Origin: Candidatus Acetothermia bacterium
Lineage (GTDB): Bacteria; Bipolaricaulota; Bipolaricaulia; RBG-16-55-9
Length of the DNA: 64,000 bases
NCBI GenBank assembly: GCA_016201405.1
Contig: JACQCZ010000014.1
Span: forward strand, 106,631 to 170,630
Reading direction: 5' to 3'
Made by a program: the position numbers and the translations under genes. The notes under the pieces are model-generated. The model did not search any database. It was not told the origin of the DNA and worked only from the letters and a program-made list of their open reading frames with translations. Within the stretch, counting starts at the first letter, position 1. Every line of letters begins with the position of its first letter. Positions 1,787 to 54,954 of the stretch are shown in pieces.

Positions 1787-2209
1787 ATGGCCAAGGCGCG
1801 AGTCATCTGGAATCAAGATATGCAATTTGTGGGGATCACCGAGAGCGGACATGCCGTTGTAGTCGATGCAACGCCGGATCACGGCGGCTATGGCTCTGCG
1901 CCCAGCAACACAGAGATGATCGCGGTTGCCCAGGGCGGCTGCACTGGGATGGACATCGTTTCGATCCTGCAAAAGAAGCGTGTTGCGTTTGACCGCTTTG
2001 AGATGGAAGTTGATTTGCAGCCCACAAAAGAGCATCCACGGTATATTCAGAGAGTCGAGATCACTTACAAAATCTGGGGTGAAGACCTCTCGAAAGACGC
2101 CATCCACCGCGCCGTTGAGTTATCGCTTGAGAAATATTGCATTGTGGCGCACACCTTGCGCGGACGCGCGGAGTTAAGCTACAAGATTCTGATCAATCCA
2201 TCAGAATAG
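1787..2209 (+). CDS. OsmC/Ohr family protein
   Basis: 140 aa; size and conserved Cys/Gly pattern (AQGGCTGMD) consistent with OsmC-like peroxiredoxin fold. Confidence 0.75.
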   Translation: MAKARVIWNQDMQFVGITESGHAVVVDATPDHGGYGSAPSNTEMIAVAQGGCTGMDIVSILQKKRVAFDRFEMEVDLQPTKEHPRYIQRVEITYKIWGEDLSKDAIHRAVELSLEKYCIVAHTLRGRAELSYKILINPSE

Positions 2210-3454
2210 ATCGGGGAAATCTCCGCTCACATCCATAACGTCCAACTCGATGATCTTGGCTGTAAAACCAAGTAGCTCTGCCAGATTTGGATCTGTGCGC
2301 CCGCCATCTCCGGAGATCAGTTCTTTCACATAAAGCCCGCCATCACAGCGAAGCTCTATCATAGCCTCTGTAGGGCTTAACAACTCTCCTTGGATAGAAA
2401 ATAGATAGCGCCATCGCGTCAGGTTGGCGCGGCGATGAAGCACTCGCTCTGGCGTCTGCTGCGAGATCTTTCCAGTCAACTTTGCGAGTGTACCATTAAG
2501 AACGACAGAATTTATCGGCTTCTCGAAAGTCACTTTTGCCCGATACGACTTTTGAGCCTTCCCTTCTTTGATCTCTTCAACGACTTTTCTTGAAACAAAA
2601 TGGAGATCTCCGGCTTCGACTTTTCCGCTGGCAGTGGCGTTGATTTCACTCTTTAATCCAGCAAGTTTCAACGTACGTACTTTGGGGCTCTTAATCTCCA
2701 GCACAAAAGGCCGCCCAGTGCCGAGCATTCGCGCGTCAATATCCTCGCGACCAGCGCCATGAAAGGCATGCTCTTTGCTTTTTGCCGCCTCTAGCACGGG
2801 AGCGGCAATCAGCTCTCCCACGCTCTCTGGGTACTGCTTCCCCGTCCCCTTGCAATGAGCACAGCCCTTGCCTTTGCATTTTCGGCAGGGCCAGATAGTT
2901 TGCGGAATATTTCGTACAAATTTTTGGTACCGCCCATAGATGTAGAGCGAATGAATTTCAATTTCCAGTTTCTTTCGTTCCAAATCGATTAAAAAGACGA
3001 CTTCAGGTTGGTTAAAATCGACGGCAATCTCCCGTCCTGTTACGTTTTGAGCCTGGCCGAATCTCTTGCCCACCAACCGATTGAACTCCTGTTTGAAAGG
3101 CTCCACTTGTTCTTGAGGAATCGCATAGCGACTCCAGAAGCTCTGCTCAGCCCGGACCACATTCTCAGGAGGGCGCGTTCCCACCAGGTATTTTGCAAAT
3201 TCGACTCCTTCAATACGATCGGCAGAGAGCCTGCTCCATTCTGCTACCTGCTCGAATAGATTATTGCAGATTGAGCAGATAGCAGGGCTATCGGGCTTCT
3301 TTCCTGATTCCATCGCATAGAGGACGCGAAGCGCCCTTCCCCGCTCTTCAACGCTAAGAGCCGTACCTAGTTTGGCAAAACAGCGACCTAAGCAGTGATC
3401 GCAAATGACTTCGTTTGCCAAGATCTCTCTTGCCATCTCAATGAGTGGTTTCAT
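2201..3454 (-). CDS. pus10: tRNA pseudouridine synthase Pus10 (archaeal/eukaryotic type)
   Basis: 417 aa; N-terminal CxxC...CxxC zinc motif, a second Cys cluster (CRKCKGKGCAHCKG) and catalytic-looking GREDIDARMLGTGRPF motif. Confidence 0.7.
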   Translation of the reverse strand: MKPLIEMAREILANEVICDHCLGRCFAKLGTALSVEERGRALRVLYAMESGKKPDSPAICSICNNLFEQVAEWSRLSADRIEGVEFAKYLVGTRPPENVVRAEQSFWSRYAIPQEQVEPFKQEFNRLVGKRFGQAQNVTGREIAVDFNQPEVVFLIDLERKKLEIEIHSLYIYGRYQKFVRNIPQTIWPCRKCKGKGCAHCKGTGKQYPESVGELIAAPVLEAAKSKEHAFHGAGREDIDARMLGTGRPFVLEIKSPKVRTLKLAGLKSEINATASGKVEAGDLHFVSRKVVEEIKEGKAQKSYRAKVTFEKPINSVVLNGTLAKLTGKISQQTPERVLHRRANLTRWRYLFSIQGELLSPTEAMIELRCDGGLYVKELISGDGGRTDPNLAELLGFTAKIIELDVMDVSGDFPDLF

Positions 3455-19993: not shown

Positions 19994-20030
19994 CTTTCAA
20001 CCAACATCGCGGGCGCGAGCGGAGGCATTG

Positions 20031-21905
20031 ATGAGGGGGGCATTATTTCGCTGGATTCTGAGAGTTCTATTCTCTCTTCTTCTGGTCCTCTCCTTCGCTT
20101 ACCAAACTGGGCTTGCAGATGTCAGTCTAGATGTCGAAGTGGGCTTTGGAGGCCAATTCATGTCCGGCCAGTACACTCTCGTCCAGGTCGTCTTGCAATA
20201 TCAGGGCCCGCCTCTCACGGGAGAGCTGGCACTTCACCAAGAGTACAAATCTCCGCTCGAGAGCGAGAAGTCCTTTTCTGAGCGGCGCACGGTGCGCCTG
20301 GGCTCAAATGTCAACCAGCTCTATCAATTCTATTTCCCCGTCTCCCGCTCTCCCTGGCCCAATGAGGATCAGCCCGCTCTCTCCATCACGCTCTCATCCA
20401 ATGGGAGCGTGGTATTTTCGAAGCGCGTTCCCCTCGCCGGCGACGTTGAGCCACAGCCGCTCGTGCTCGGAGTGAGTGAGACCAACTTTCCCCGCATGCT
20501 CACGACAGGAGAGCGGATAGAGAGCGTGGGACTCAATCAGCTGCCGGAGGACTGGCGAGGATATGACGGAGTGAGAAGAATCTATCTGGGCCGCGCGAGA
20601 ACCGACCAGCTCACCAAGCGCCAACAAGACGCGATCCAGCAGTGGATCACACGGGGCGGAGAATTCGTGGTGCTCGGCGGTGAGAATTTCTACTTGCAGG
20701 ATTCTTCGTGGCTGCGCCAGATCATTCCGTTTGATGTCTCAGGAATCGAAGCGGCACAGGCCTCGTCCGATCTGCCCACGTATGTTGCAGGCAAGCCTCT
20801 CGGGGAAGTCCTCATTCAGCGGGCTGCGATCCCACTTCTGGTAGAGCAGCGGGTCGTCAATGGCATCATCTTCTTTTCCGTGCTCGACTTATCACAGCAG
20901 ACGGAATTGTCTCAAGCCATCTGGAACGACTTGCGGCAGACCTCTTCTCTGCTCGACAATCAGCCTCCTGATCTGGGCTCAAAGATTTTGGGAAACACCC
21001 AGCTCGCTTATCCATCAAAGCCGCTCCTTGGCGCTCTGTTGATTCTTTATCTAATAGGCTTTGCCTATATCAGCCTTTGGATGCTGCGGCAGCCCCTCAA
21101 CACCTTGCTCTCCTCTCCCGAGGGCGGTGAGATGCGCAGAAAGAGGCAGGGCTGGAAGGTGCTCGCCTTTGTTGTCGGCTGGATGCTCATCTTTGCAGTC
21201 CCGAGCCTTGCCTATCTGGGCCAGCCCAGATTTCACAGTTATTTTCAGTCTCTTGAGGTCGGGTTGATCAGAGCCCAGGAGGGATCGTCCTGGGGCTGGA
21301 GCCAGAGCTGGTACAGTGTCATCTCCAAGAAGGAGCGCAGCCTCTCGCTGGCAGCCAGCGACAACTCTCTCATCCTGCCCCTGGGGCAGACGCAGCTGGA
21401 ACTGCTGCAAGAACGCCCCGATGCGTGGGATTTGGACTTTTCACCCAACCCTATGAAAAGCTGGTCCACAGAGAACCTCTATACCGAAGAGATGGTGCCG
21501 CTTGACATCGGCGTACGCGCGGACAAAGAGGGTGGAGATGTCAGAGGCTCTCGGATTCAGGTCTATAATGGCAGCCAATGGAACCTGCGGGATGCCGTGC
21601 TCTTTCGCAACGGAGTCTATTATCCCATCGGAGAGGTCCCAGCCGGAAAGTCGCTCACCGCTGAGCTTAGCGGTCTGGGACTCAATGAGTGGTCACCATG
21701 GAGTGGCTTCAAAGACCTCTGGAGCATCGAGGAGCGGGTGAAGAATGTCATCATGAATCAGCTCGGGATTACGGATGAATTGAAGAGGGATCGCAGCCAA
21801 TGGGTCTTGCTCGGCTGGGCCGAAGTTCGCGCGCTGACTCAGGCTTACCGCGAAAATCGTCAGGGACTTTCACTCATTCTCATTCGCTCCAAGGAGCAAG
21901 AGTAG
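20031..21905 (+). CDS. hypothetical exported/membrane protein, first gene of the MoxR-VWA operon
   Basis: About 624 aa; N-terminal signal peptide, two central TM helices, no recognised catalytic motif. The ORF formally starts at TTG 20028. Confidence 0.5.
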   Translation: MRGALFRWILRVLFSLLLVLSFAYQTGLADVSLDVEVGFGGQFMSGQYTLVQVVLQYQGPPLTGELALHQEYKSPLESEKSFSERRTVRLGSNVNQLYQFYFPVSRSPWPNEDQPALSITLSSNGSVVFSKRVPLAGDVEPQPLVLGVSETNFPRMLTTGERIESVGLNQLPEDWRGYDGVRRIYLGRARTDQLTKRQQDAIQQWITRGGEFVVLGGENFYLQDSSWLRQIIPFDVSGIEAAQASSDLPTYVAGKPLGEVLIQRAAIPLLVEQRVVNGIIFFSVLDLSQQTELSQAIWNDLRQTSSLLDNQPPDLGSKILGNTQLAYPSKPLLGALLILYLIGFAYISLWMLRQPLNTLLSSPEGGEMRRKRQGWKVLAFVVGWMLIFAVPSLAYLGQPRFHSYFQSLEVGLIRAQEGSSWGWSQSWYSVISKKERSLSLAASDNSLILPLGQTQLELLQERPDAWDLDFSPNPMKSWSTENLYTEEMVPLDIGVRADKEGGDVRGSRIQVYNGSQWNLRDAVLFRNGVYYPIGEVPAGKSLTAELSGLGLNEWSPWSGFKDLWSIEERVKNVIMNQLGITDELKRDRSQWVLLGWAEVRALTQAYRENRQGLSLILIRSKEQE

Positions 21906-21907
21906 CG

Positions 21908-22666
21908 GTGTCCGCGCAAGAGCGCGCATCAGTAGCCAATCCCAAGAGCACTGCCCCGAAAATCCCTTGGCTGGGAACCGATTGGGACTACTGGTTCGAC
22001 CGCGAGACGTGGTCATCCCTGATGGCGTTTCTTCTGCTGTCGGGAGGCATCTTGCTCGTTGCCTTGCCGAACACAACCGAAGTCGGCAGGCTCACTCCCA
22101 AATCCATGGAAGCGACTGATCTCTTCTCGGCCCTCTATTCAATCTTATTTGGGATTCTGGCGATCACGCTTGGACAGGCCGAGTTGTCTTGGGGACATCG
22201 GCTCAGCAGCCAGGAGCATTTTGTTCATCTATTTAGCCGTCTGGTGGTGCCGCTGGTGCTCAGTCTGCCCTACTGGATTCTTTATATCTTCGCCAATATC
22301 ATGAGCCCACTTTTAATTATTGTACTCCTTGTGCATTTTATTTTATATGGTTATGTGCTCGGGCTTTGCGGCTGGCGGCTATCGCTGATGGGGCAGTCCG
22401 AGATCTTCCAATTCAACATCAAATATCTGAGCTACTTTGGGCTGGTCGCGATTACCTTCTTTGCTGCGCCGCTCCAGTTCATCAATCCCATCTTGGCGAT
22501 CACGGAGATTTTGGGGGAGAATGGCATGGCTCCCGCACTCAATCTGTTGGGCTTCTATACCGCATGGCTGGCGCTGGGTGCGGTCATAGCGTACTTGATC
22601 TTGCACAAACTGAATACGGAGAATCGAGAAATGGAGGAGTATGAAAACGAACTATCTCGTCGTTGA
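21908..22666 (+). CDS. hypothetical polytopic membrane protein
   Basis: About 253 aa with about 6 predicted TM helices; GTG start immediately after the upstream stop (the ORF track begins at 21800, overlapping the previous gene). Confidence 0.45.
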   Translation: MSAQERASVANPKSTAPKIPWLGTDWDYWFDRETWSSLMAFLLLSGGILLVALPNTTEVGRLTPKSMEATDLFSALYSILFGILAITLGQAELSWGHRLSSQEHFVHLFSRLVVPLVLSLPYWILYIFANIMSPLLIIVLLVHFILYGYVLGLCGWRLSLMGQSEIFQFNIKYLSYFGLVAITFFAAPLQFINPILAITEILGENGMAPALNLLGFYTAWLALGAVIAYLILHKLNTENREMEEYENELSRR

Positions 22667-24380
22667 GCAAGAGGTGATTGAGGCGCGGCGGCGGTTGAAT
22701 CGCCTTCAGGGTGTGCGGCTGGGGTTGACTCTCTCAGCCTCGCTGACGCTCGTCTATCTCATTCTCTTCTTCTTTGGCTGGGTACAGTTGATTCAGCCCT
22801 GGCCGATTCTCATTCTCTTTAACGCCATCTGCGGCGGACTCGGCATGATGTGGGGAGATCGGCGTCCAACGCGCCTCCAGCACGACCTGCTCCGTGTCGA
22901 CCGCGCGCTAGGGCTTGGCGAGAAGCTCACGACGATCTTTGAGCTTCGCCGGGGTGAGCGCTCATCCGACATCTTGGAAGCCCTCTATCGCCGGATTGAC
23001 CAGAGCCACGTCGATCCCAAAGAAGTCTTCAAGCTCCCCCGCACGGAGCAGAATGGCTGGTATGCGCTCGGCGGGATCACTGCCGGCATCTTGCTGATGA
23101 TCGGGCTTTGGGGGAATGGCCTCAGTCTCCTCCATATTGAGCAATGGCTCCAAGGTCTGCCGATAAATGAGCTTTCCAGTCAACAGACTCTCCTGGGTAA
23201 AGATGCACTGGATGGCTCACAAAGCGTTTTAGGGAAGGGCCAGAATCAATCGAATGCCAAAGATAAGAAGAGTGATGACGCAGCCTGTGAAAAGCAAGAC
23301 TCTTCTTCAACAGCCCTGAGCAGCGATGCAAATTGCGTCAATGGCAGAGATCAGAATTCACCTACAGATTCGCAAAATCAGACGGCGAAGAATCAAAATG
23401 GCCAGAATATGCCGCCAAACTTTCCACAGAGTCTGTCCGATTTGCTGCAACAGCTCCAGCAGGGGAATATCTCACAAGATGAAGTGCAAAAAGATCTGAG
23501 CAGCCTCGCCAATCAGCTTCCGCCAGGCCTGTTGCAAGATATGCTAAAAGACGCAGCAAAGAGCATGGATCCTGCTGACCTTGCGAAGCGGCTGGCCGAT
23601 GCCCTCAAGGAAGCACAACGTCAGGATGAGAACCAGAAGAAGCGGGCTCAATCCAATGACAAAAATGACAACCAGCCCTCTCCTCAAGGGGGCCCAGGCT
23701 CCAAAGGCCAGGGGATCCCGGGTATGGCCTCTGGAGACCAATTGGCAAATCAGAATCAAAACAACTCGAATAAATCAGGCACAGAAGCCCCGAACAGCGG
23801 GAGCTCTTCCTCACAATCCGGTGAGAACCCAGATCAGCCCAAAGGTGGGGATCAGTCAAACCAGTCTGGGCAGGCCGGGGGCAAGCAGGGCAGCAGTGAC
23901 TCCCTCTCCCAGAATGGCAAGAGCAAAAATGACTCACCCGACAAGAAAGATGAAAACGGGAAGAGCTCTGATGGCTCCGGCACGAACGACGGATCCAATA
24001 ACAGCGGAAGTAGTAGCGGCTCCCCTGAAAGCTCATCGGATGACGAGGGCTCTGGTGGCAAAGACTCATCGGGTGGCAATGGAGCCGGTGACACCGCTGG
24101 AAATGGCAAGGATGGGAAGAAGGATCAGTCTTTGACCATGGATAAGAGCCTGCTCATCCACGGCGCCAGTCTTCCGCAGGATGCTGAGCAGCTCAAGCGG
24201 TTAATTACGCTTGGATTGCCCGTGGATTTGCAAGGCACTCAAGCCGATGGGACACCCACGCTCAAGCTCAATATCGAGCGTGTCGAGTCGCTGCTCCAGC
24301 TCCGCGAGCTTCCCCCCAATCTGAGAGCGCTGGTCCGGGCCTATTTCTTGGCTATCGCCGGAGAAAAATCGTCCAAATAA
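22641..24380 (+). CDS. hypothetical membrane protein with a roughly 300-aa Q/N/S/D/G/K-rich disordered region
   Basis: 579 aa; N-terminal TM helices, third TM near residue 150, long low-complexity polar segment, conserved-looking C-terminal 80 aa. Start overlaps upstream stop by 26 nt. Confidence 0.5.
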   Translation: MKTNYLVVEQEVIEARRRLNRLQGVRLGLTLSASLTLVYLILFFFGWVQLIQPWPILILFNAICGGLGMMWGDRRPTRLQHDLLRVDRALGLGEKLTTIFELRRGERSSDILEALYRRIDQSHVDPKEVFKLPRTEQNGWYALGGITAGILLMIGLWGNGLSLLHIEQWLQGLPINELSSQQTLLGKDALDGSQSVLGKGQNQSNAKDKKSDDAACEKQDSSSTALSSDANCVNGRDQNSPTDSQNQTAKNQNGQNMPPNFPQSLSDLLQQLQQGNISQDEVQKDLSSLANQLPPGLLQDMLKDAAKSMDPADLAKRLADALKEAQRQDENQKKRAQSNDKNDNQPSPQGGPGSKGQGIPGMASGDQLANQNQNNSNKSGTEAPNSGSSSSQSGENPDQPKGGDQSNQSGQAGGKQGSSDSLSQNGKSKNDSPDKKDENGKSSDGSGTNDGSNNSGSSSGSPESSSDDEGSGGKDSSGGNGAGDTAGNGKDGKKDQSLTMDKSLLIHGASLPQDAEQLKRLITLGLPVDLQGTQADGTPTLKLNIERVESLLQLRELPPNLRALVRAYFLAIAGEKSSK

Positions 24381-24402: not shown

Positions 24403-25389
24403 ATGACCATCGAGATGCAACTGGCAAAAACAGAAGAGGTCTTCCAGAAGCTGACGCGTGACATTCAGAAAGTTATTGTCGGCCACCAGGAGACTATCCG
24501 GGGGACGCTGATCTGCCTGCTCTGTGGCGGGCATGCTCTTCTCGAAGGCGTACCCGGGCTCGGCAAGACCCTCACCGTAAAGACGCTGGGTAAATTATTG
24601 GGGCTCTCTTTCTCCAGAATTCAGTTTACGCCCGATCTCATGCCCGCAGACATTTTGGGAACCAATATCATTGTGGAAGAGGGAGGCCGGAGGGCCTTTG
24701 AGTTTTCAAAGGGCCCCATCTTTGCCCATATTGTGCTGGCGGACGAGATAAACCGCGCCACCCCCAAGACGCAATCTGCGCTCCTCGAAGCGATGCAGGA
24801 GCGCGGGGTCACCATCTCCGGCAAAACTTATGTACTGGACGAGCCATTTATCGTTCTGGCCACGCAGAACCCCATCGAGATGGAAGGCACATATCCTCTG
24901 CCTGAGGCACAAGTAGACCGCTTCTTCTTCAAGATTGTCCTCGATCAGCCGACGCAAGAAGAGCTGGACGAGATTCTCAAGCGCCACATGACATCACCGG
25001 AAGTGAAGCACATCGCCGGAAGCGCCATCTCGCGCGAGACTCTAGTCGACGCAAAGAAGCTGATGGCTCAGATCCCTATTGCGGAGCCGTTGCGCCATTA
25101 CATCGTGCGGCTGGTCAATGCCACGCATCCCAAGCGGGATGAGGCAGCTCCGCTGGTCAAAGAATACGTCGAATATGGAGCGAGCCCGCGCGCTGGCATC
25201 GCCCTTCTCTGGGGCGCAAAGGCCAATGCATTCTTAGATGGCCAATTGAACGTTCGCATCGAAGATATTCAGCGCGTCTTTGTGCCTGCATTCCGGCACC
25301 GAATCATCCGCAACTTCCGGGGCGAGGCGGAGGGCATCGCCGTCGATGAGATCTTAAAACAAGTGATCGAGAAGACTCCCGAGGTATAG
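24403..25389 (+). CDS. MoxR family AAA+ ATPase
   Basis: 328 aa; Walker A GVPGLGKT, Walker B VLADEINR, and the MoxR sensor region. Confidence 0.9.
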   Translation: MTIEMQLAKTEEVFQKLTRDIQKVIVGHQETIRGTLICLLCGGHALLEGVPGLGKTLTVKTLGKLLGLSFSRIQFTPDLMPADILGTNIIVEEGGRRAFEFSKGPIFAHIVLADEINRATPKTQSALLEAMQERGVTISGKTYVLDEPFIVLATQNPIEMEGTYPLPEAQVDRFFFKIVLDQPTQEELDEILKRHMTSPEVKHIAGSAISRETLVDAKKLMAQIPIAEPLRHYIVRLVNATHPKRDEAAPLVKEYVEYGASPRAGIALLWGAKANAFLDGQLNVRIEDIQRVFVPAFRHRIIRNFRGEAEGIAVDEILKQVIEKTPEV

Positions 25390-25395
25390 CGGCAC

Positions 25396-26268
25396 ATGCC
25401 CCTTCTGCTCGATTCAGCCTATCTCAAAAAGCTCGAAAACCTGGGTCTGGTCATTCGGGGGCGCTTTCATGGCTATATGACCGGAAAGCGGCTCACTTCC
25501 CGCTCCGGGATGAGCCTGGAATTTGCTGAATACAAAGAATATTCGCCGGGGGATGATTTTCGCTATGTAGACTGGAATCTCTATGGACGCCTTGGGAAGC
25601 TCTTTGTCAAACGCTTTAACCGCGAAGAGGACGTTCCGATCTATCTCTTTTTGGACATTAGCCATTCGATGGCCATCGGAGAAAAGCTCAATTACGCCGT
25701 TCTGCTGGCGGGCACGCTGGCCTATTTAGGACTGAAAGAATTCAATCGCGTCGGGATCTTTCCGTTTGCCAGCGATCTGGCTCTCGGCGTGCCTCCCAAA
25801 GGGAGCTACAAACAGCTCTTCCAGATCTTCCATTTCTTAGAGAAAGTCGTGCCAGCGGGAGAGACCTCCATCAATGAGTCCCTGACGCGCTTTACGCGCA
25901 TCCGCCGTGAGAGCGGGCTGGCCGTCATTATCAGCGACATGCTCAGCGAGGATGGCTTTGAAGAGGGACTGGCACAGCTCCTCTATCATGGCTATGAGGT
26001 GATCGTCCTTCATCTGTTGGCTCCCGATGATTTGAATCCAGCGTGGAATGGCGAGATTCGCCTCAAAAATATTGAAGACCAGAAGGAGATTACAGTCCAT
26101 GTGGATCGCGCTGCGCTGAACGAGTACCAGACGGCCTTGGATAATTATCGTTCAAGACTGGAAGCATTCTGTCGTGAGCGCGGCATCCGCTATGCCCTGG
26201 TCTCTACGGACAGCCCTCTTGAGAAGACAGTCTTCGAGACCTTGCGGGAAGGGGCGCTGGTTCAATGA
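25396..26268 (+). CDS. DUF58 domain protein (MoxR partner)
   Basis: 290 aa; DUF58 signature YVDWNLYGRLGKLFVKRF and LFLDISHSM; directly downstream of MoxR. Confidence 0.85.
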   Translation: MPLLLDSAYLKKLENLGLVIRGRFHGYMTGKRLTSRSGMSLEFAEYKEYSPGDDFRYVDWNLYGRLGKLFVKRFNREEDVPIYLFLDISHSMAIGEKLNYAVLLAGTLAYLGLKEFNRVGIFPFASDLALGVPPKGSYKQLFQIFHFLEKVVPAGETSINESLTRFTRIRRESGLAVIISDMLSEDGFEEGLAQLLYHGYEVIVLHLLAPDDLNPAWNGEIRLKNIEDQKEITVHVDRAALNEYQTALDNYRSRLEAFCRERGIRYALVSTDSPLEKTVFETLREGALVQ

Positions 26269-28154
26269 CCTTTCTATCGGGCATTGCGCTCTGGCTTCTA
26301 GGCCTTGGTGCGATCATCACATTTATTTATTTCTTAAAGCGCCAGGCGCGGGTGCAGCCCGTCTCGACGCTCTTTCTCTGGCAAAGGATTGAGCAGAGGC
26401 CCCAGAGCGCGCTCCGTTTTCAGTGGACCCAGCTCCTCGGGCTCATCTTGCAGTTACTGGCTCTCACAGCCATTGTGGTGGGGATTGCCCAGCCGGTGAT
26501 CTACTCTGCCAGCGGCGGTGTGGGACGAATGGCCATTCTGCTCGATGGAAGCGCCAGCATGCGAGCGCTCATGCCTTCTGAAAAGATCACACGCTTTGAG
26601 CGGGCCGTACAGCGGGCTCAAGGGTTGCTCGATGAGAATCCGGCTGCCGAGGTGACCTTGGTCGAGGCACAGACGCACAGCGCAATCCTTGTACCGCCTA
26701 CCCATGATCATTCCTTCATTCGCAAGGCTCTGAGCGACGCCAGGCCGACGTATCAGGGGAATGCTGACTCGGGCGAGCTGCTCAGCCTTCTTCAAAGTCA
26801 GAGCAGCACAGGCTATGACCAAGTTGTCCTGATCAGCGATCAAGCTGCCAAGCCGCAGCAGCAGCAATTGGGGATTGATGTTGAGTCCGTCTTGGGAGAT
26901 GAATCTTCTGAAAATATTGCCCTTACGGACTTTTCTGTGCGTGAGCAGCCCAATGGCAAGGGGTATGACTTCTATCTCCAAGCCTGGAACTCATCGAGTG
27001 ATGCAGTAAACGTTCCGCTGGATATAGAAGCCGATGGGAAATCCGTCCAGTCGGATGTGATCACCATCCCCGCGCATGGCTCTCTCTCACGAACTTTCTC
27101 ATCGTCGCTTCGCTATGCGGATGAGTTTCGAGCCAAGATCGATACCACGGCTCTTCCCGACGACTGGAGCGATGATGACGTACGCTATGCGACATCTCCA
27201 CAGCCACCCCCCTGGAAGATTTTATGGGTAGGCAAGATCAATTTTTATCTAGAGAGCTTTTTGCAGAATTCAGGAGAGGTTGACCTGACCGAGAAGGCGA
27301 CCCTGGATGAAGCGGGAGATCTCAACCGCTATGACGTGGTCCTGCTCAATCAAGTCGATCTTTCGGATGCTCAGGCTGGCGCGGGTCATTATCTGGCATT
27401 TGGCGGCTCTTTTGGAAGCTATATCCTCTCCAAAAGCATTCATGATCTGACGAGTGGCGCGGTGGATGTCCAGAAAGATGACCCACTCTTGCAAGGGATG
27501 GACCCGACCGCTTGGCGACTGCTCCACATTCCGGACGCGGCCGTCGATCCCAAGGGAGAGGTCTTATTATCTTCCGAGAGTCTTCCGTTTCTTTATATTT
27601 ATGAGAAGCCGGGTCTGCGGCTTTCGTATATCGGAGCCGATTTGGAGGCTTCCAATCTTGTATTGTCGATTGATTTTCCAATACTGATCTATCGTCTGCT
27701 CTCTTGGCTTTCTCCCCGCTCTGGGGAGAGCACAACGCTGACGGCTGGAGACGAGCTTCCGCTATCATCATTAGAAAATATAAAGAGCATTGTCGATCCG
27801 CAAGGCAAGACCTGTCAATACAATTCTTCCGCAAGCCAGTGCGGCAGCTTGGGCGAGATCGGTTTCTATCAGGCCACGCGAGCCGATGGAGAGGCCGTGA
27901 CTTTCGCCGCCAATGCGGATCCAACAGAGTCTATTTGGGAGGATGCTTCGGATGCGGCTGCAACTGCAGTGACTCCGACGAGCTCACAGCAGGCAGGGTC
28001 ACTGGGCGACACGCCGCAAGCGTTAAAAGCGGCGATCCCTGTATGGCCCTATTTGCTGGCGATTGGATTGATCTTATTACTGGCTGAGCTCTTCACATTT
28101 CACCGTCCAACGGCAATTCCATGGCTGCCCTCCCTGGGGAGGAAGAGGGCATGA
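26265..28154 (+). CDS. BatA-like membrane protein with VWA domain
   Basis: 629 aa; N-terminal BatA-type TM region, MIDAS-like DGSAS motif, C-terminal TM helix. Start overlaps upstream stop. Confidence 0.7.
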   Translation: MTFLSGIALWLLGLGAIITFIYFLKRQARVQPVSTLFLWQRIEQRPQSALRFQWTQLLGLILQLLALTAIVVGIAQPVIYSASGGVGRMAILLDGSASMRALMPSEKITRFERAVQRAQGLLDENPAAEVTLVEAQTHSAILVPPTHDHSFIRKALSDARPTYQGNADSGELLSLLQSQSSTGYDQVVLISDQAAKPQQQQLGIDVESVLGDESSENIALTDFSVREQPNGKGYDFYLQAWNSSSDAVNVPLDIEADGKSVQSDVITIPAHGSLSRTFSSSLRYADEFRAKIDTTALPDDWSDDDVRYATSPQPPPWKILWVGKINFYLESFLQNSGEVDLTEKATLDEAGDLNRYDVVLLNQVDLSDAQAGAGHYLAFGGSFGSYILSKSIHDLTSGAVDVQKDDPLLQGMDPTAWRLLHIPDAAVDPKGEVLLSSESLPFLYIYEKPGLRLSYIGADLEASNLVLSIDFPILIYRLLSWLSPRSGESTTLTAGDELPLSSLENIKSIVDPQGKTCQYNSSASQCGSLGEIGFYQATRADGEAVTFAANADPTESIWEDASDAAATAVTPTSSQQAGSLGDTPQALKAAIPVWPYLLAIGLILLLAELFTFHRPTAIPWLPSLGRKRA

Positions 28155-30721
28155 TTCGGTTCAGCCAGCTCTGGCCGCTTCTCTTACTGCTTATCCCTAT
28201 CGGACTGCTCCTCTGGCAGTGGGAGGCGCTGAAGCGCTTTACCCTCGGCGACCGCATTTCGTTTGGGGCGCGGCTCGGAGTTGTGGCGCTTGGCATCCTC
28301 GCACTCTCAGGACCGCAATTGTTGAGCTGGACGGAATCGCACTACGTCTATTTTCTGGCAGATCTTTCCAAAAGCGTGAGCCCTCAAGACCGGGGTCAGC
28401 TGCTCTCGGAGCTTCGCGCACTCGCCAAGCCGCAAGAGTACACTCAATACGGCCTGATCGTCTTTGGGGTCAAGCCGTATGTCGAAGCTCCATTCAGCCC
28501 AATGTTAAATTTGAACGAGGTCTTGACGAATGTCGATAGTGAAGGAACAGATTTGCAGGCCGCACTGGAGCTGGCCATGTCAACCTTCCCCCGTGATGGC
28601 AAGAAGACGATTGTGCTTCTTTCCGATGGCCAGCCAAGCCAGGGAGAGACGACAGAGGCGCTGGCCCGCGCCAAACGGGAAGGGGTAGAGATCTTCACTT
28701 TGCCGATGGACCCGCCAGCCTCTGAGTTTTCAATCCAGACGATCCAGGCTCCACAAGAGGTCGCAGTCCAGCTCCCCTTCTCATTCCAGAGCGTCGTCTA
28801 TGCCTCACGATCCAGCACCGGAAAGCTGCTCACATACCGCAATGAGACACTGATTGACACAAAAGATGTCGCTCTGCGTCCTGGGCTCAATTACTTTTCG
28901 TATAGCGACAAAGTGAATGACCCCGGCAGCTATGAGTACCGAGCCGAGCTTGTTGTCGCTGGCGATGCGCTCCCTCAGAACAATCATTATCGCGCATTGG
29001 TCGATGCGATCGGCGATCCGCGCATTCTTCTGGTAGAGAACAATTCTTCAGAGCAAGAATCGGTGATGGGAAAGCTGTTAAAAAACTCTGGCTATGCCTT
29101 CTCCAAAGTGAGCCTGAATGAGCTGGCGCCGACAGCCAGCTCCCTGCTCTCATACCGAGCTGTGATTATGAACGAAGTGCCGCTCAAAGATCTCACGGCA
29201 CGGCAGACCGAATTTCTAGAAAATTATGTGCGCGATCTCGGCGGAGGGCTCTTCCTCGTCCAGGGCAGGCAGTCCGTCGAAGAGTTTTATGACCGCCAGT
29301 TTGAGCAGATGCTGCCCATCACCTATGAAGGTCCGCAAGAGATCCAGCGCCCCGCGCTCGCTTTGGTGATGCTGCTCGACCGCTCCGGCAGCATGGGCGA
29401 GATCGCCGGCGGTGATACCAAGGGCAGCTATATGAAGATCGATCTCTTAAAACAGGCAGCACGAGAGGCCGTCTCCAAGCTCGATGACAACAGCCTTGTC
29501 GGCATCATCGGCTTTGACTCGACCTACGACTGGCTGGTAGACATTGGCCCCGTGAAAGGTCGGAAAGATGAGATTTTAGCTGCAGTTGATAAGCTCTATG
29601 CCAATGGCGGGACAGACATCTATCAGCCTCTCAAAGATGCCGTCGCCCAGTTGCAGAAGCTGACCGCGCGCGTCAAGCACATTCTGGTCTTCTCCGATGG
29701 AAAAGTATCCCAGCAGGGGCGCGATTTCGATCAAATCTTCCAGGAGATTGCCGGCAGCACGATCAGCGCCTCATCCATTGCCATCGGAGCACAAGCCGAT
29801 TTTGACTTCATGTGGAAGCTGGCGGATGCGGGGAGCGGCGCCAAATATCCAGTGGCCGATGCGCGGGATCTGCCACGAATCACGCTGGAAGAGATGGTGC
29901 GGCTGGAACGCGCCCGCTGGGTCAAAGGGCCATTGGGTGTCGAGGCCGGACCCTTTGCAAATCAGCTGACTGGAATTGACCCCAGCACCATCCCCAATGT
30001 CGATGGCTATGTTCTGACGTTTGAGAAGCCAACGGCGCAGACGCAGCTTCAGGTCCGTGCTGACAAAGATCATGCAGACCCTCTGGTGAGTCAGTGGCAC
30101 TATGGTCTGGGCAAGGTCTTTGTGCTCAACACCAGCTTTGAAGGCGAAGGCCTGGAGCGCTGGAAGTCCTGGAGCGGACTGGGCGAGCTGAGCTCTGAGA
30201 TTCTGAGCCAGGTCTACAGCGAGAGCACCATCAAGCCCAAAGAGCTAGCCGTCTGGACAGATTCTTCTAACTCAACGCTGAGCGTCCATGTTGAAGCGGA
30301 CCGCGACGGCAAATGGCTGGATCAATTGGTAATGAATGGGCAACTCAACACACCGGATGGCAAGTCAATTCCTCTCGACTTGGAACAGACGGGACCAGGG
30401 ACCTATCAGGCCACCGTAAAAGATCTGAGCGAAGGCGTCTATCTGCTCAATTTGGGTGAAGATTCACTCGGTCAAGTCCAAGAGGCTGTCCAGATTCCCT
30501 ATGCAGCGGAGTACAAAAAGATTGGGCTGAATGAGCCACTTTTGCAACAGATCGCAGAAGTGACTGGAGGAGAATATCTTGAGAATCCAGATCGCTTGCA
30601 AGGCCTGTTGCAGGGCCGGACACTGATCTACCGGGATATCTGGCAGGAGATTTTATTGGCAGCCCTCTTCTTCTTTCTGGCCGATCTGGCTCTGAGAAAA
30701 GTGCCTTTTCTGCACGCTTAA
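28151..30721 (+). CDS. BatB-like membrane protein with two VWA domains
   Basis: About 856 aa from ATG 28151 (ATGA overlap); N-terminal TM, two MIDAS-like motifs (DLSKS and DRSGS), C-terminal TM anchor. Confidence 0.7.
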   Translation: MIRFSQLWPLLLLLIPIGLLLWQWEALKRFTLGDRISFGARLGVVALGILALSGPQLLSWTESHYVYFLADLSKSVSPQDRGQLLSELRALAKPQEYTQYGLIVFGVKPYVEAPFSPMLNLNEVLTNVDSEGTDLQAALELAMSTFPRDGKKTIVLLSDGQPSQGETTEALARAKREGVEIFTLPMDPPASEFSIQTIQAPQEVAVQLPFSFQSVVYASRSSTGKLLTYRNETLIDTKDVALRPGLNYFSYSDKVNDPGSYEYRAELVVAGDALPQNNHYRALVDAIGDPRILLVENNSSEQESVMGKLLKNSGYAFSKVSLNELAPTASSLLSYRAVIMNEVPLKDLTARQTEFLENYVRDLGGGLFLVQGRQSVEEFYDRQFEQMLPITYEGPQEIQRPALALVMLLDRSGSMGEIAGGDTKGSYMKIDLLKQAAREAVSKLDDNSLVGIIGFDSTYDWLVDIGPVKGRKDEILAAVDKLYANGGTDIYQPLKDAVAQLQKLTARVKHILVFSDGKVSQQGRDFDQIFQEIAGSTISASSIAIGAQADFDFMWKLADAGSGAKYPVADARDLPRITLEEMVRLERARWVKGPLGVEAGPFANQLTGIDPSTIPNVDGYVLTFEKPTAQTQLQVRADKDHADPLVSQWHYGLGKVFVLNTSFEGEGLERWKSWSGLGELSSEILSQVYSESTIKPKELAVWTDSSNSTLSVHVEADRDGKWLDQLVMNGQLNTPDGKSIPLDLEQTGPGTYQATVKDLSEGVYLLNLGEDSLGQVQEAVQIPYAAEYKKIGLNEPLLQQIAEVTGGEYLENPDRLQGLLQGRTLIYRDIWQEILLAALFFFLADLALRKVPFLHA

Positions 30722-32047: not shown

Positions 32048-32141
32048 AAGTCCACCTCCTGGTCATTCGTAACTTAGCTCAATGTACAGATCGAATTCAT
32101 TGGCTTCAAGTTGTACAATGCGGCACATAAGGAGACCCATG

Positions 32142-32537
32142 AAGCAAGGAGCCGTCATCAAATTTATTGCGCGCTGGGTAGTGGCCACAATCTCCATCTA
32201 CGCCATCGCTTGGCTCTTTCCGGGCATCATCCAGATTGATGACTTCTCAACAGCGATTTGGGCGGGATTGGCTCTTGGTTTTCTCAACGCAATTGTGAGA
32301 CCCATTCTCATTGTTTTTACGCTGCCAGCCACAATTCTAACCCTTGGGCTTTTTATTCTCGTGATCAATGCTCTAATGCTCTATCTTGTAGGCGCGCTGG
32401 TGGCTGGAGTTCATGTGACTAGCTTTGGCTCAGCATTTTTGGGAGCACTGCTCATCAGCATTCTCTCCTCTGTTATTCACTTCGTATTGTTCCCTGAGGA
32501 GCGCCGCCTGCACGTACAGATCAAGCGAAACTTGTAA
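32142..32537 (+). CDS. DUF360 / phage-holin-family 4-TM membrane protein
   Basis: Four TM helices with conserved NAIVRPILIVFTLP pattern. Start chosen at MKQGAV; the ORF starts at 32082. Confidence 0.55.
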   Translation, partial: KQGAVIKFIARWVVATISIYAIAWLFPGIIQIDDFSTAIWAGLALGFLNAIVRPILIVFTLPATILTLGLFILVINALMLYLVGALVAGVHVTSFGSAFLGALLISILSSVIHFVLFPEERRLHVQIKRNL

Positions 32538-50758: not shown

Positions 50759-51550
50759 TTAACGCGGCGCAGCCTTGCGCATCATTTTGGCAAAGCGGTT
50801 GGGGAAGAATCTCTTGATGTAAATGAGCTTTATATCCCGTCCCGCGATGAAGATCTCATTCTCGTCTTGCTCGATTCCTTGCAGAATCTTCTCTGCACAG
50901 ACCGCAGGGGGCTGGCCATTCGCCACAGCCTGGTCCATTTTGTTAAAAACTGCCCCGTCGCCTTTAAGCGCATTGAGCGAGATATTCGTGTGAATGTAGC
51001 CAGGACAGACAATCATGACTTTGATCCCATCTTGCCACGTCTCAGCGCGGAGCGATTCGAAGAAGCCGTGCAGAGCGTGCTTTGAGGCCGAATAAGCCGA
51101 GCGCAGCGGCGTCCCGAACTTTCCGGCCAAGCTGCTGATGGCCACAATGTGACCCGATTTCTGTTTCAACATGATGGGCAGAACGGCCTTTGTCAGTGCC
51201 ACTGTGCCAAAGTAATTGACGGCCATGATCTTCTTGTCGACTTCAAGTCTCGTATCTTTGGTGAGTGCACGCTGGCTGATTCCGCCATTGTTGACGAGAA
51301 CATCAATTCTTCCGAATTTTGCGAGCGCCGTCTCAGTTTTCTTGGTAAGAGAGTCGTGATCAGCCAGATCAAGGGGCAAAACAAGTATATCCTCTGGTTT
51401 AGCTCCCAAACTGGCTTGAGCCCGGTTGAGCTCGTCCTCGCGGCGCGCTGACAGAATCACTTTCGCGCCCTTCTGATAAAACAAACGAGCCAGAGCCTCC
51501 CCAATTCCTGAAGATGCACCCGTGATCCATACGACTTTTTCTTGAAAGCT
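50759..51550 (-). CDS. SDR family oxidoreductase
   Basis: Rossmann motif TGASSGIGEA, NNGG and catalytic YSASK. Start chosen at MSFQEK; the ORF extends to 51592. Confidence 0.85.
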   Translation of the reverse strand, partial: SFQEKVVWITGASSGIGEALARLFYQKGAKVILSARREDELNRAQASLGAKPEDILVLPLDLADHDSLTKKTETALAKFGRIDVLVNNGGISQRALTKDTRLEVDKKIMAVNYFGTVALTKAVLPIMLKQKSGHIVAISSLAGKFGTPLRSAYSASKHALHGFFESLRAETWQDGIKVMIVCPGYIHTNISLNALKGDGAVFNKMDQAVANGQPPAVCAEKILQGIEQDENEIFIAGRDIKLIYIKRFFPNRFAKMMRKAAPR

Positions 51551-52245
51551 CATGCTTGCACCCCACGCTTGAGATAGTTGCACCAGCCGCACTCCGGATC
51601 AGCCTCTGGCGCTTCGACTCTCTCCAGTACATCCAGAACATTGTCTAGCAGCCTCAAGAAGACTTGTGGGTCTTGCCTCACTTCAATCCAGGAGAGAGAA
51701 CCAGCCATCGTCGCGCTGCCGCCTCCATTATGCACAAAGAGCTCTGGCTCAAAGATGAGCAGCCCCAATCGGGTGACTGGGCTTAGCGAAAGCTTTCCAA
51801 GGGCTGCATTTTGCAAGGAGTAAGCATATGCATTGAGCTGCTTAAAATAGACATCGGCGTGGGCTGCCGATGGCCTTGAGGTCTTGAAGTCAATCACCCC
51901 ATAGGAGCCATCATCAAAGGCCACAACCGCATCGAGCTTGCCTCGAATATAGCAGCTTGTTGAATGATTTTTAAGCGAAATGGGCTTCGATTCGATCCAC
52001 TTCTCTCCAAATTTGACGATGCCACTGGGAAGCTGGCTGCTGATGCGCTCTGTGCGCTCATTGATGAGACAATCTTTCATCTTGGAGTCAATCACCGTAA
52101 AGATCTTGGGCATGGCCATTCGCGGGCGGTCAAAATGATCAACAAGCTTGAGGTAAAAGCAGCGTTTGCACTCTTCCCAAAGAAAGACCAGATCACTCGG
52201 CGTCAGTTTCCAGCAGGCCTCTTCTGGAAAGAGGGACTTGATCAT
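51550..52245 (-). CDS. PD-(D/E)XK nuclease superfamily protein, Cas4/RecB-like with Cys clusters
   Basis: 231 aa; N-terminal CKRC, nuclease motifs VIDFKTS and YFKQLNAYAYSL (QxxxY), C-terminal CGWC. Confidence 0.6.
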   Translation of the reverse strand: MIKSLFPEEACWKLTPSDLVFLWEECKRCFYLKLVDHFDRPRMAMPKIFTVIDSKMKDCLINERTERISSQLPSGIVKFGEKWIESKPISLKNHSTSCYIRGKLDAVVAFDDGSYGVIDFKTSRPSAAHADVYFKQLNAYAYSLQNAALGKLSLSPVTRLGLLIFEPELFVHNGGGSATMAGSLSWIEVRQDPQVFLRLLDNVLDVLERVEAPEADPECGWCNYLKRGVQA

Positions 52246-52440
52246 TGAGATGTTCGCTCGCCTCCTCAGTTTTCACGATTGTCAAGCCGCGTAATGTAAT
52301 CTTTAGAACCGCCTGCCCTATAGCCTACCAGTAAGATGAGCGAGGAGCCAAATAGTAGATGAGCGATCTACTGATTTATTATGCATGGGTAGCGACCCAT
52401 GCTATAGCGTTACCGAATGAGGTAAGCAATAGGAGGGCAC

Positions 52441-54954
52441 ATGTTTAAGGGAACCTTAGCAAAGCCATACAAACTATTATTTTGTCTGCTCGCCTTGGCA
52501 GGGCTGTTGGCATTCTTTAGCAATGCATCTGTCTTAGCCCAGCGGCAGCCCGCCACTTCGAACCCGGCGCCGACGACGCTCCCTAAAGGGGACATCGTCT
52601 TTGTGATGGATGAATCTGGCAGCATCTTCAATGATGCGATGGCCGTAGACGCCAATTTGAACCAGATTGTCCAGCTCCTTGAGGGCGTCCTTGATTATCA
52701 AGTCGGCATCGTCGGCTTTGGCTCATATGTGGGGCACATGGGCACTCAATATGAAGGCCAGCCCTACATCAACCTAAAGCTGACGTCTGACATGAAGGCT
52801 TTTTCAAAAGCCCTCAAGACGCTAGTGACAGATGGCAATTTTGAGTATGGATTCGATGCCGTCAAGCTGGCCACTCAGGACGAGCTGGGCTTCCGCCCAG
52901 GCGCGGGCGTCTGCGTCGTGCTCATCACCGATGAAGATGCCGATCTCTCCAGTGAGCAGCCAGTCAGCCGCGAGGATGCTATTGCGGCCTTACAGAAGAT
53001 CCACGCCGATTTTCTCGGAATTGTGGACCCGTCGTATGGAACGACCATGCAAGATTACGGGCCATTGGCTGGAAGTCTGGCGCAGGCGACCGGTGGAAAA
53101 ATCTTTGATATCGCGAAGTTCCGCAAAGATGCAGGCCCGGTCCTGCGTGAGCTGATCTCATCGTGCGTCAGCACGGTTCAGAATAATAATCAAAACAATA
53201 ACCAAAACAACGGAAACACGGGCACCCCAAGCACACAGCCTCAACAACCCCAGCCTAGCTATGCAACCAGCGAAGAGCTCGATCAGCTCAAGATCGCCTT
53301 CACGGCGCTCTCCAACCAGAACACGGACTTTTTGGCTCGCCTGAGCCAGATTGTGAGCCGCATCGAGGCACTGGAAGCGAAGGGCAATGGGCTGCCAGCC
53401 GATCTTGAAGCGCGGCTCACGACCTATGAGCGCAACTTCCAGCGCATTGACATCACTTTCCAGAACTTTACTGCCAACTTCAATCAGTACAATTTGCGCC
53501 TTAATGACGCCGAGCAGAATATTGCCTCGCTACGGACTACAATTGCCGCTCTGCAAGAATCCAACCAGAATATGGCGATCCGAATGCAGAGCTTGGAGGA
53601 CCGCATCAAAGCCCTGGAAGGCTCTGACATTGGCGACCGCGTCAAGGCACTCGAAGCCGTCTTTGTCGAATTTGACAGCTTCAAGACCGACTTTGGCGCT
53701 CTGCTCAACTGGCGTGACGACGCCAAGCAGAGACTGGATGCGCTGGAGAAGGCATTTGCCGATGCGAATAACCAATTCAATGCTATCCACGCAACCCTGA
53801 CAGACTTACAAAACTCAGACAGCGGCATAAACTCGCGCGTCGACGACCTGACGGGACGTCTGAAGAGCTTGGAGGATCAGACCGCACAGCTCTCTTCGGG
53901 TCTTGGAGCACGGATCGATGCATTAGAGAAGCAGCTCGCCGGATTTGCTGGATATGAGGCCCGCTTCCAGGAGATCGAATCGAAACTCAATGGCATTGAT
54001 CTGAGTGTATATGATGCCAAATTCCAAACATTTGCTGGCGAGATTGATGCACTGCAAAAAGCCGTCACAGAGAACTCTCAAGATATCGCTTCGTTCAAAG
54101 ACCGGGCTTCCGCTTGGGATTTGGATCTTTCTAACTTGAAAGGAGCGGTTGGCTCCCTGGTCGATAAAGTGAGCGCCCTGGGCGGCCTGGTCCAGCAGGT
54201 CGCAGACTTGCAATCCGCCGTTCAGGGACTTCAGACAAAGCTCCAGGATACGCAAGACTCATTCTCAGCCCGATTTCAGACGAACGAAGCAAATTTGGAT
54301 GCCCTTAAGAAAGAGATCGATGGCGTCAATAGCGATCTTCAAGATTTGATCAAGCGCCTCAGCGACAAACCGTTCGCGCTTCAATCCGACTTGGATTCGC
54401 TCGCCTCAAGCTTGGGCAGCCGCATCCAGTCTCTCTTGCACCGCATCCAAAACTTGGAGGCGGCAGGACAGGGACCTGATCCCGAGACGAAGAGCCAGCT
54501 TGAGAACCTGGCCAACTTGATCTCGCAGCTCCAGGTGAGCCTGGCACAGCAGGCATCGAAACAGAATGCCGATTACGAAGAAGTGAAGAATCTGATCGCG
54601 GGTCATGAGGAATGGCTCCAAAAGATCGAGGCTTGGAAGTCGATGGATGACGAGCGGGTGGCTGGCCTCGATCAACGACTGACGACTGTGGAGGGTAGTC
54701 TCAATGACCTCTCTGCACAGCTGAAAGATAGCCAGAACAAGCTGACTGCGAATCAGAAGACGATGGGAGATCTCCAGCACTCTCTCACCGACTTGAAGAC
54801 CAAGCTGGATGACCTTGCCAATCGAATGGATGGACAGAGCAATGCGCTCGATCCCGCCAAGCTGCGCTCGGCTCAGCGTCTGGCAGAGATTGCCTTCCTG
54901 ACCGCAGTGGCAGCCATCGGAATCTCGCTGCTCTTCTTTCTATCCAAATCGTAA
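52441..54954 (+). CDS. secreted VWA-domain protein with long coiled-coil region and C-terminal TM anchor
   Basis: 837 aa; signal peptide, VWA with MIDAS DESGS, N/Q-rich linker, about 550 aa of heptad-like repeats (RIEALEA, RIKALEG, RVKALEA, RIDALEK), C-terminal TM helix. Confidence 0.7.
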   Translation: MFKGTLAKPYKLLFCLLALAGLLAFFSNASVLAQRQPATSNPAPTTLPKGDIVFVMDESGSIFNDAMAVDANLNQIVQLLEGVLDYQVGIVGFGSYVGHMGTQYEGQPYINLKLTSDMKAFSKALKTLVTDGNFEYGFDAVKLATQDELGFRPGAGVCVVLITDEDADLSSEQPVSREDAIAALQKIHADFLGIVDPSYGTTMQDYGPLAGSLAQATGGKIFDIAKFRKDAGPVLRELISSCVSTVQNNNQNNNQNNGNTGTPSTQPQQPQPSYATSEELDQLKIAFTALSNQNTDFLARLSQIVSRIEALEAKGNGLPADLEARLTTYERNFQRIDITFQNFTANFNQYNLRLNDAEQNIASLRTTIAALQESNQNMAIRMQSLEDRIKALEGSDIGDRVKALEAVFVEFDSFKTDFGALLNWRDDAKQRLDALEKAFADANNQFNAIHATLTDLQNSDSGINSRVDDLTGRLKSLEDQTAQLSSGLGARIDALEKQLAGFAGYEARFQEIESKLNGIDLSVYDAKFQTFAGEIDALQKAVTENSQDIASFKDRASAWDLDLSNLKGAVGSLVDKVSALGGLVQQVADLQSAVQGLQTKLQDTQDSFSARFQTNEANLDALKKEIDGVNSDLQDLIKRLSDKPFALQSDLDSLASSLGSRIQSLLHRIQNLEAAGQGPDPETKSQLENLANLISQLQVSLAQQASKQNADYEEVKNLIAGHEEWLQKIEAWKSMDDERVAGLDQRLTTVEGSLNDLSAQLKDSQNKLTANQKTMGDLQHSLTDLKTKLDDLANRMDGQSNALDPAKLRSAQRLAEIAFLTAVAAIGISLLFFLSKS

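Follow-up and report, generated by a model that had tools for sequence, protein, structure and literature searches.

We analyzed a 64-kb stretch of a Candidatus Acetothermia bacterium genome (contig JACQCZ010000014.1; hereafter, the window), in which a reverse-strand gene encodes a stand-alone nuclease of the Cas4/RecB-like PD-(D/E)XK type. The protein is already deposited as MBI1730000.1 under the name "PD-(D/E)XK nuclease family protein". Its stop codon overlaps the start of a downstream gene for a classical short-chain dehydrogenase/reductase (SDR), and a gene for a vWA/coiled-coil protein diverges from it upstream (Table 1). An earlier note on this DNA had called attention to the nuclease motifs VIDFKTS and QLNAY and to the cysteine pairs CKRC and CGWC. 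All of these were recovered at the open reading frame (ORF) given there, and every nuclease motif quoted below was likewise checked against the DNA of the window.

Table 1. Features of the nuclease locus and other overlapping gene pairs (positions in the window; aa, amino acids)
Feature	Position	Strand	Remarks
Stand-alone Cas4/RecB-like PD-(D/E)XK nuclease, coding sequence	51550..52245	-	231 aa, ATG start
N-terminal CX2C, C26-K-R-C29 (CKRC)	52159..52170	-	Junction of helices 16-25 and 27-36 (model)
D53, near-invariant acidic residue of the IFxxID helix	52087..52089	-	Candidate RecB motif I
D105 (RGKxD), first catalytic aspartate	51931..51933	-	RecB motif II; invariant; 148/150 representatives
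D119-F-K121, catalytic D-x-K	51883..51891	-	RecB motif III; invariant
Q136-L-N-A-Y140	51826..51840	-	QxxxY motif of RecB-type nucleases; Q and Y invariant
C-terminal CX2C, C219-G-W-C222 (CGWC)	51580..51591	-	Start of last helix
ATGA stop/start overlap	51550..51553	-	Nuclease TGA 51550-51552, SDR ATG 51551-51553
Classical SDR oxidoreductase	50759..51553	-	264 aa; downstream neighbour; TGxxxGxG, NNGG and YxxxK motifs
AGGAGG, Shine-Dalgarno-like hexamer	52261..52266	-	15 nt upstream of ATG, 9 nt upstream of in-frame ATC
21-nt intergenic motif GGCGGTTNNNAAGATTACATT	52293..52313	-	Between nuclease and divergent vWA/coiled-coil gene
vWA/coiled-coil protein	52441-54954	+	837 aa; divergent neighbour of nuclease
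Other gene pairs with 4-nt overlap	3529-4467/4464-4922; 18313-18885/18882-19652; 25396-26268/26265-28154; 35822-36613/36610-37293; 62111-63043/63040-63501		Same strand within each pair

Residues 80-224 of the nuclease matched the Pfam family PF12705 (PDDEXK_1) with 34.8 bits (E 2.1e-8), the gathering cutoff being 22, and the same family was precomputed on all 120 of the homologues listed. VIDFKTS occupies residues 117-123, and its D-x-K strand aligned with the active-site strands of Cas4 SSO0001 and ACE1. A QxxxY motif follows this strand, as is characteristic of the RecB-type branch that comprises Cas4, AddB, RecB and lambda-exo. Because the PDDEXK_1 score exceeded the gathering cutoff and the motifs were invariant in 114 homologues, their occurrence goes beyond chance. 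The candidate motif I residue D53 was less strictly kept, with aspartate in 113 of 141 aligned cluster representatives. The protein is not a Cas4 sensu stricto as defined by TIGR00372 and PF01930: TIGR00372 gave 25.9 bits, under its curated cutoff of 65, with only core residues 77-146 matching, and PF01930 returned nothing at E ≤ 1. The PADLOC Cas4 models produced partial matches (E 2e-6 to 3e-3), and the other weak partial matches in that collection were to Aga-Cas4-like and DruK.

An AlphaFold2 model based on 114 homologues was highly confident (predicted local distance difference test, 95; predicted template modelling score, 0.90). It has the restriction-endonuclease-like α/β core of the PD-(D/E)XK superfamily, with the catalytic residues on strands 97-104/106-110 and 115-122. 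Structural matches to the model, with their scores, were Cas4-Cas1 (7mi4; 14.4), AdnA (14.1), Dna2 (12.7), MGME1 (12.2), type I-C Cas4 (11.9), SSO0001 Cas4 (11.3), RecE and Exo5 (10.8 each), Pcal_0546 Cas4 (10.3) and ACE1 (8.8). When sequence profiles were compared instead, ACE1 (9iab, E 1.3e-3) and SSO0001 (4ic1, E 0.03) came nearest among solved proteins; both alignments span the D-x-K strand, and the latter also includes the C-terminal CxxC. With the Pfam match, an intact D...D-x-K and QxxxY signature, a confident model and structural matches to Cas4, AdnA, Dna2 and Exo5, the proposal of the earlier note that this is an orphan Cas4/RecB-like PD-(D/E)XK nuclease held up.

The nuclease belongs to a family of hundreds of homologues of about 227 aa each. 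An exhaustive hidden Markov model search of 1.84 billion cluster representatives found 372 clusters at E ≤ 1e-30, rising to 939 when the threshold was relaxed to E ≤ 1e-10, so that the family counts at least 372 clusters at the level of 50% identity. A pattern scan restricted to a single genome for each species yielded 71 family loci, nearly all in metagenome-assembled genomes. Their hosts were Zixibacteria, Chloroflexota (Anaerolineae and Dehalococcoidia), Planctomycetota, Acidobacteriota, Rokubacteria, Nitrospinae, Acidimicrobiia, Armatimonadota, Latescibacterota and several candidate phyla radiation (CPR) lineages, and most of these phyla are uncultured. No family copies were found by tblastn of phage and plasmid collections. 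Three viral-contig matches (L078-L080) were rejected as family members, being remote phage exonucleases that lack the cysteines.

In the alignment of 114 sequences, C26, C29, D105, D119, K121, Q136, Y140, C219 and C222 were among the invariant residues. A missing catalytic triad on alignment, which the earlier note had named as grounds for abandoning the nuclease assignment, is thus not what we found. Across the broader set of 150 cluster representatives, D105, D119 and K121 were present in 146-148, Q136 in 140 and Y140 in 143; C26 and C29 were present in 122 and 121 of the 127 aligned. The four cysteines were complete in 109 of 117 full-length representatives, and all nine residues together in 218 of 233 full-length family proteins. 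Purifying selection is strong, with a dN/dS of 0.088 against the 89%-identical orthologue L072. These results indicate that the gene is a genuine, well-conserved solo Cas4-like nuclease of modest novelty.

Fusions are rare in the family. P0153 carries a C-terminal topoisomerase-type C4 zinc ribbon (PF01396, over the Pfam cutoff); P0166 and L053 (5407-6684, Armatimonadota) have an N-terminal DprA-like domain (PF02481, E about 3e-5, below the cutoff); and L032 (5971-9324, Latescibacterota) ends in a leucine-rich-repeat tail of roughly 900 aa. The zinc-ribbon and DprA-like fusions suggest that the nuclease works with DNA, probably single-stranded DNA (ssDNA), and we regard it as highly unlikely that the protein is instead an RNA-processing or nucleotide-acting member of the PD-(D/E)XK superfamily.

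We then considered the cysteines. In Cas4-family proteins and in the nuclease domains of AddAB and AdnAB, one N-terminal and three C-terminal cysteines hold an iron-sulfur (Fe-S) "iron staple" (PMC12094033). In the present family, four conserved cysteines also bracket the nuclease core from both termini, but as a CX2C at either end, a 2+2 layout in place of the canonical 1+3 (C...CX2CX5C). CGWC aligns with CKYC of SSO0001, and hence with the first two C-terminal ligands of that protein; the third C-terminal cysteine of canonical Cas4 (CX5C) is absent, and a further cysteine within 10 residues after C222 was present in only 4 of the 117 representatives. C26 and C29 would make up the first half of a putative four-cysteine metal site, and C219 and C222 the second. 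From the Cas4 motif "CPRK(F/Y)(Y/W)L", we infer that C26 may correspond to the canonical N-terminal cysteine of Cas4 and that C29 would replace the missing CX5C ligand. A profile search of the Protein Data Bank with the N-terminal 55 residues returned only the C-terminus of PvuII (E 0.12 per single-copy chain, no cysteine aligned), which we judged a chance match.

In 5 of the 233 proteins, three or four cysteines were missing together while the catalytic residues were kept. Three proteins, P0222, P0224 and P0265, have lost all four cysteines and retain D-D-K-Q-Y. The cysteines are kept and the active site is lost in another three (P0203, P0248 and P0272), which may have become inactive, DNA-binding derivatives. 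Since the cysteines are lost together with the active site kept, and vice versa, the four appear to form one unit with a structural rather than a catalytic function. The clusters of Cas4-family proteins have likewise been reported to be structural (PMC12501428).

As for the metal, we lean slightly towards an Fe-S cluster, although a CX2C...CX2C layout is equally typical of zinc sites. The competing possibility, to which we give a smaller though still appreciable chance, retains the fold and the catalysis but places zinc, or a single rubredoxin-like iron, at the four cysteines, making an oxygen-insensitive, "zinc-stapled" variant of the iron staple. No zinc-ribbon or knuckle signature is commoner than two CX2C pairs, and the loss of the canonical CX2CX5C spacing, the scarcity of an extra cysteine near C222, and the members that lack the four cysteines and keep the active site, hence a structural site, all fit this possibility. 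Zinc sits less well with the homology of the C-terminal CX2C to two Fe-S ligands of Cas4 and with the Fe-S clusters that the nearest structural relatives (Cas4, AdnA, Dna2, Exo5 and ACE1) all bear at the same position. Moreover, many of the host lineages are anaerobes, in which Fe-S is cheap. Keyword searches of open-access text found no described Cas4-like family with a CX2C...CX2C arrangement.

To place the gene in its surroundings, the ORFs of the window were annotated by direct Pfam scans (about 50 ORFs, essentially all the large ones). They comprised only transport, translation, nucleotide-metabolism and envelope genes, with no cas or defence gene among them. No CRISPR array was detected in the window by Tandem Repeats Finder, a direct-repeat scan, Rfam or a k-mer scan, each of which returned zero hits, and the window holds no tandem repeats or Rfam families; the statement of the earlier note that neither cas genes nor an array are present was thus borne out. 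The same was true elsewhere in the family: no CRISPR-like array lay within ±6 kb of any family locus in 71 genomes, and no cas gene was found among 117 immediate neighbours at 68 other family loci. These neighbours fell into 98 different Pfam families, of which only one recurred, a luciferase-like monooxygenase found in ten Dehalococcoidia related to one another. Neither the Pfam census nor an all-against-all clustering of the flanking ORFs revealed a neighbour kept across phyla. The defence-like ones among the 117, namely a C5 methylase, an HsdR-like protein and an integrase, were each seen once, and no PADLOC-DB defence system with partner genes was found near the nuclease in the window or in the neighbour census. 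The locus is therefore not a hidden CRISPR or defence island.

These data also bear on the possibility that the protein is a solo-Cas4 serving CRISPR-Cas adaptation, or another defence such as that of a prokaryotic Argonaute, as ACE1 does, encoded elsewhere in the genome. We think this improbable. Besides the lack of an array or cas gene in the window and around the loci of the 71 other genomes, the Cas4 family models score the protein below cutoff or report nothing, its cysteine layout is unlike that of all Cas4-family proteins described, phage and plasmid copies are lacking, and the defence-like neighbours are singletons.

We next focused on the downstream gene. The protein translated from the overlapping ATG, which is identical to the deposited one, contains TGASSGIG, NNGG and YSASK, matched PF00106 (E 6e-58), and scored 260 bits against a cutoff of 215 with NF004825, aligned from residue 2; it is thus a classical SDR by both model and motifs. 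The ATGA overlap between the nuclease stop and the SDR start, as described in the earlier note, is present in the DNA. The one relative in which an SDR with the same 4-base overlap was found is the fully syntenic one at 89% identity (L072 and L073). At 62% identity (L074), a small convergent ORF comes next after the nuclease, ahead of the same M42 peptidase, and at 65% identity (L075) the gene for ProRS comes next, with no SDR in either. None of the 71 loci from other phyla had an adjoining SDR. A tblastn search of these loci with the window neighbours gave SDR matches solely in one clade of Dehalococcoidia, roughly 5 kb off and some 35% identical, which we set aside as generic. Furthermore, five other same-strand pairs in the window overlap by 4 nt, one of them consisting of a cyclase-domain gene and the functionally unrelated ruvX, indicating that such overlaps are a trait of this compact genome rather than of the nuclease-SDR pair.

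The earlier note had gone further and suggested that the overlap could mark a small DNA-processing or defence module. In such a module the SDR might, for example, make or sense a small molecule that controls the nuclease. The overlap is real and is kept in the closest relative, and the two genes are probably co-transcribed, with no terminator-like site found between them. However, the SDR is gone from beside the nuclease at 62-65% identity and in other phyla, adh_short is not among the recurrent neighbour families, the SDR itself is a generic classical enzyme without a PADLOC match, and 4-nt overlaps are routine in the window. A two-gene module is therefore largely refuted by the lack of co-conservation, and we give it almost no weight; the SDR is a lineage-specific neighbour outside the conserved context of the nuclease family.

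Upstream of the nuclease, the ATG of its ORF is preceded by an in-frame ATC, 6 nt away, and by the AGGAGG hexamer. In L072 (6537-6668), L073 and L075 (2870-3001), gene callers begin the nuclease at an internal methionine, and the resulting 189-aa proteins lack the N-terminal CX2C. Even so, the 40 codons upstream remain in frame in the relatives and are 97% identical, with a dN/dS of 0.045 (against L072). The position of the window ATG is TCG in L072, and an in-frame ATC lies 9 nt after AGGAGG there, which suggests that the nuclease uses a non-canonical start codon.

The intergenic motif GGCGGTTNNNAAGATTACATT also occurs in L072 (6475-6495), L073 (6055-6075), L074 (621-641) and L075 (2800-2820). 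Its core is identical in L072-L076, including the 62-65% relatives, in which the flanking intergenic DNA has diverged. It is present as a single copy in the window and is absent from the 71 loci of other phyla. No stable RNA fold was found at GGCGGTTNNNAAGATTACATT, and an RNA element in the 5' leader of the nuclease was rejected (no Rfam match; fold z-score +0.76). The motif is probably a shared promoter or operator, and we regard it as a candidate for such a site. The divergent gene encodes, in order, an N-terminal signal or transmembrane segment, a vWA domain, an N/Q-rich linker, a coiled coil of about 550 aa and a C-terminal transmembrane helix. It is a conserved neighbour of the nuclease within the lineage, and the pairing is absent outside it. 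PADLOC matches of this protein to JetC, LmuB and DruC fell in the coiled-coil region, with no ATPase head; we dismissed them as compositional and not SMC-type defence.

Several other genes of the window deserve mention. The ORF at 2201-3454 (-) matches the Pus10 C-terminal domain (E 3e-71) and the archaeal Pus10 THUMP domain, in a genome labelled bacterial, although Pus10, a tRNA pseudouridine synthase, is typically found in archaea and eukaryotes. An operon at 24403-30721 (+) encodes MoxR AAA+, DUF58, BatA-vWA and large vWA proteins and constitutes a Bat-like aerotolerance cluster. Upstream of it, three consecutive ORFs (20028-24380; 625, 288 and 579 aa) have no Pfam match at E ≤ 0.01. A 151-aa ORF at 32082-32537 (+) matches Phage_holin_4_2 (E 1e-31); it is flanked by genes for a rhomboid protease and a LysE exporter, and the surroundings are otherwise not those of a prophage.

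On this evidence, we consider it likely that the gene encodes a stand-alone, Mg2+- or Mn2+-dependent Cas4/RecB-like DNA nuclease, its termini clamped by a four-cysteine metal site, with a chromosomal role outside CRISPR in the processing of ssDNA or DNA ends, and that the SDR overlap is incidental. As a divalent-metal-dependent enzyme of the Cas4/RecB/AddB/Dna2/Exo5 branch of the PD-(D/E)XK superfamily, it would use D105, D119 and K121, aided by Q136 and Y140, as a Mg2+/Mn2+ active site. C26 and C29 of the N-terminal helices and C219 and C222 of the C-terminal helix would jointly coordinate a single structural metal centre. This centre, which is most likely to be an Fe-S cluster but may be zinc, would clamp the chain ends round the nuclease core in the manner of the iron staple known from Cas4, AddB and Dna2, with 2+2 instead of 1+3 ligands. 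The substrate would probably be ssDNA or DNA ends, such as 5' flaps or resected ends, and the enzyme would work by itself or together with partners whose genes lie elsewhere in the genome. It would serve in chromosomal DNA end processing or repair, not in CRISPR adaptation. Of this picture, the analysis itself shows the fold, the motifs, their conservation, the purifying selection and the want of a conserved context, and the DNA substrate, the nature of the metal and the cellular role are inferred from these. The nuclease-SDR overlap would reflect co-transcription in the compact genome of one genus-level lineage rather than a shared function.

The superfamily, the fold, CRISPR-independent Cas4-like nucleases in general and the generic annotation of this gene were already known; a limited literature search found no description of the family or of its 2+2 cysteine arrangement. 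A bolder and rather unlikely extension is that these proteins form an undescribed clade of "stapled" Cas4-like nucleases, in which the metal ligands have been shifted to CX2C...CX2C, possibly with Fe-S exchanged for zinc, and which serve as minimal, helicase-independent DNA-end or flap nucleases with a role of their own in numerous uncultured phyla (Chloroflexota, Zixibacteria, Planctomycetota, Acidobacteriota, CPR and Acetothermia). If so, they might, for example, substitute for a missing AddAB/RecBCD-type end resection, and the rare DprA-like and topoisomerase zinc-ribbon fusions would mark a link to ssDNA handling. Stand-alone Cas4-like nucleases occur widely, and little is known of what they do in the cell. 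Being compact and strongly conserved, with a well-predicted fold, this nuclease is an easy biochemical target, and the rearrangement of its cysteine ligands provides a natural experiment on the function of the iron staple and on whether zinc can stand in for it.

Among known systems, Cas4 (COG1468/PF01930/TIGR00372; SSO0001 4ic1, 7mi4 and I-C 8d3l) and the archaeal and bacterial solo-Cas4 proteins are close. The nuclease differs from Cas4 in scoring far under the model cutoffs, with 14-18% identity, in its CX2C...CX2C (2+2) as opposed to C...CX2CX5C (1+3) ligands, and in the absence of a cas or CRISPR context in the window and the 71 other genomes. The nuclease domains of AddB, AdnA and AdnB (AddAB and AdnAB) and of Dna2 are fused to or work with helicase motors of superfamily 1 or 2, Exo5 being the exception, whereas the present protein consists of a 231-aa domain alone, has no helicase gene beside it and differs in its cysteine layout. 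CRISPR-independent Cas4-like nucleases are already known (PMC5704561). The pfam12705 "Cas4-like" proteins of Hudaiberdiev et al. (2017) share with our family the Pfam assignment and the lack of CRISPR association. Their branches (phage Cas4-like proteins, UvrD-Cas4 fusions and COG1205-linked proteins) are phage-borne or fused or linked to helicases, often in defence contexts; by contrast, the family described here is chromosomal, unfused apart from the rare fusions, and without conserved context. ACE1 and ACE2 (9iab and 9iac) are Argonaute-associated Cas4-family nucleases. ACE1, the best sequence-profile match among solved structures, belongs to the Cas4 family, acts as an ssDNA endonuclease and has both a D-DxK site and a four-cysteine cluster; like it, the nuclease reported here is small and stands alone.
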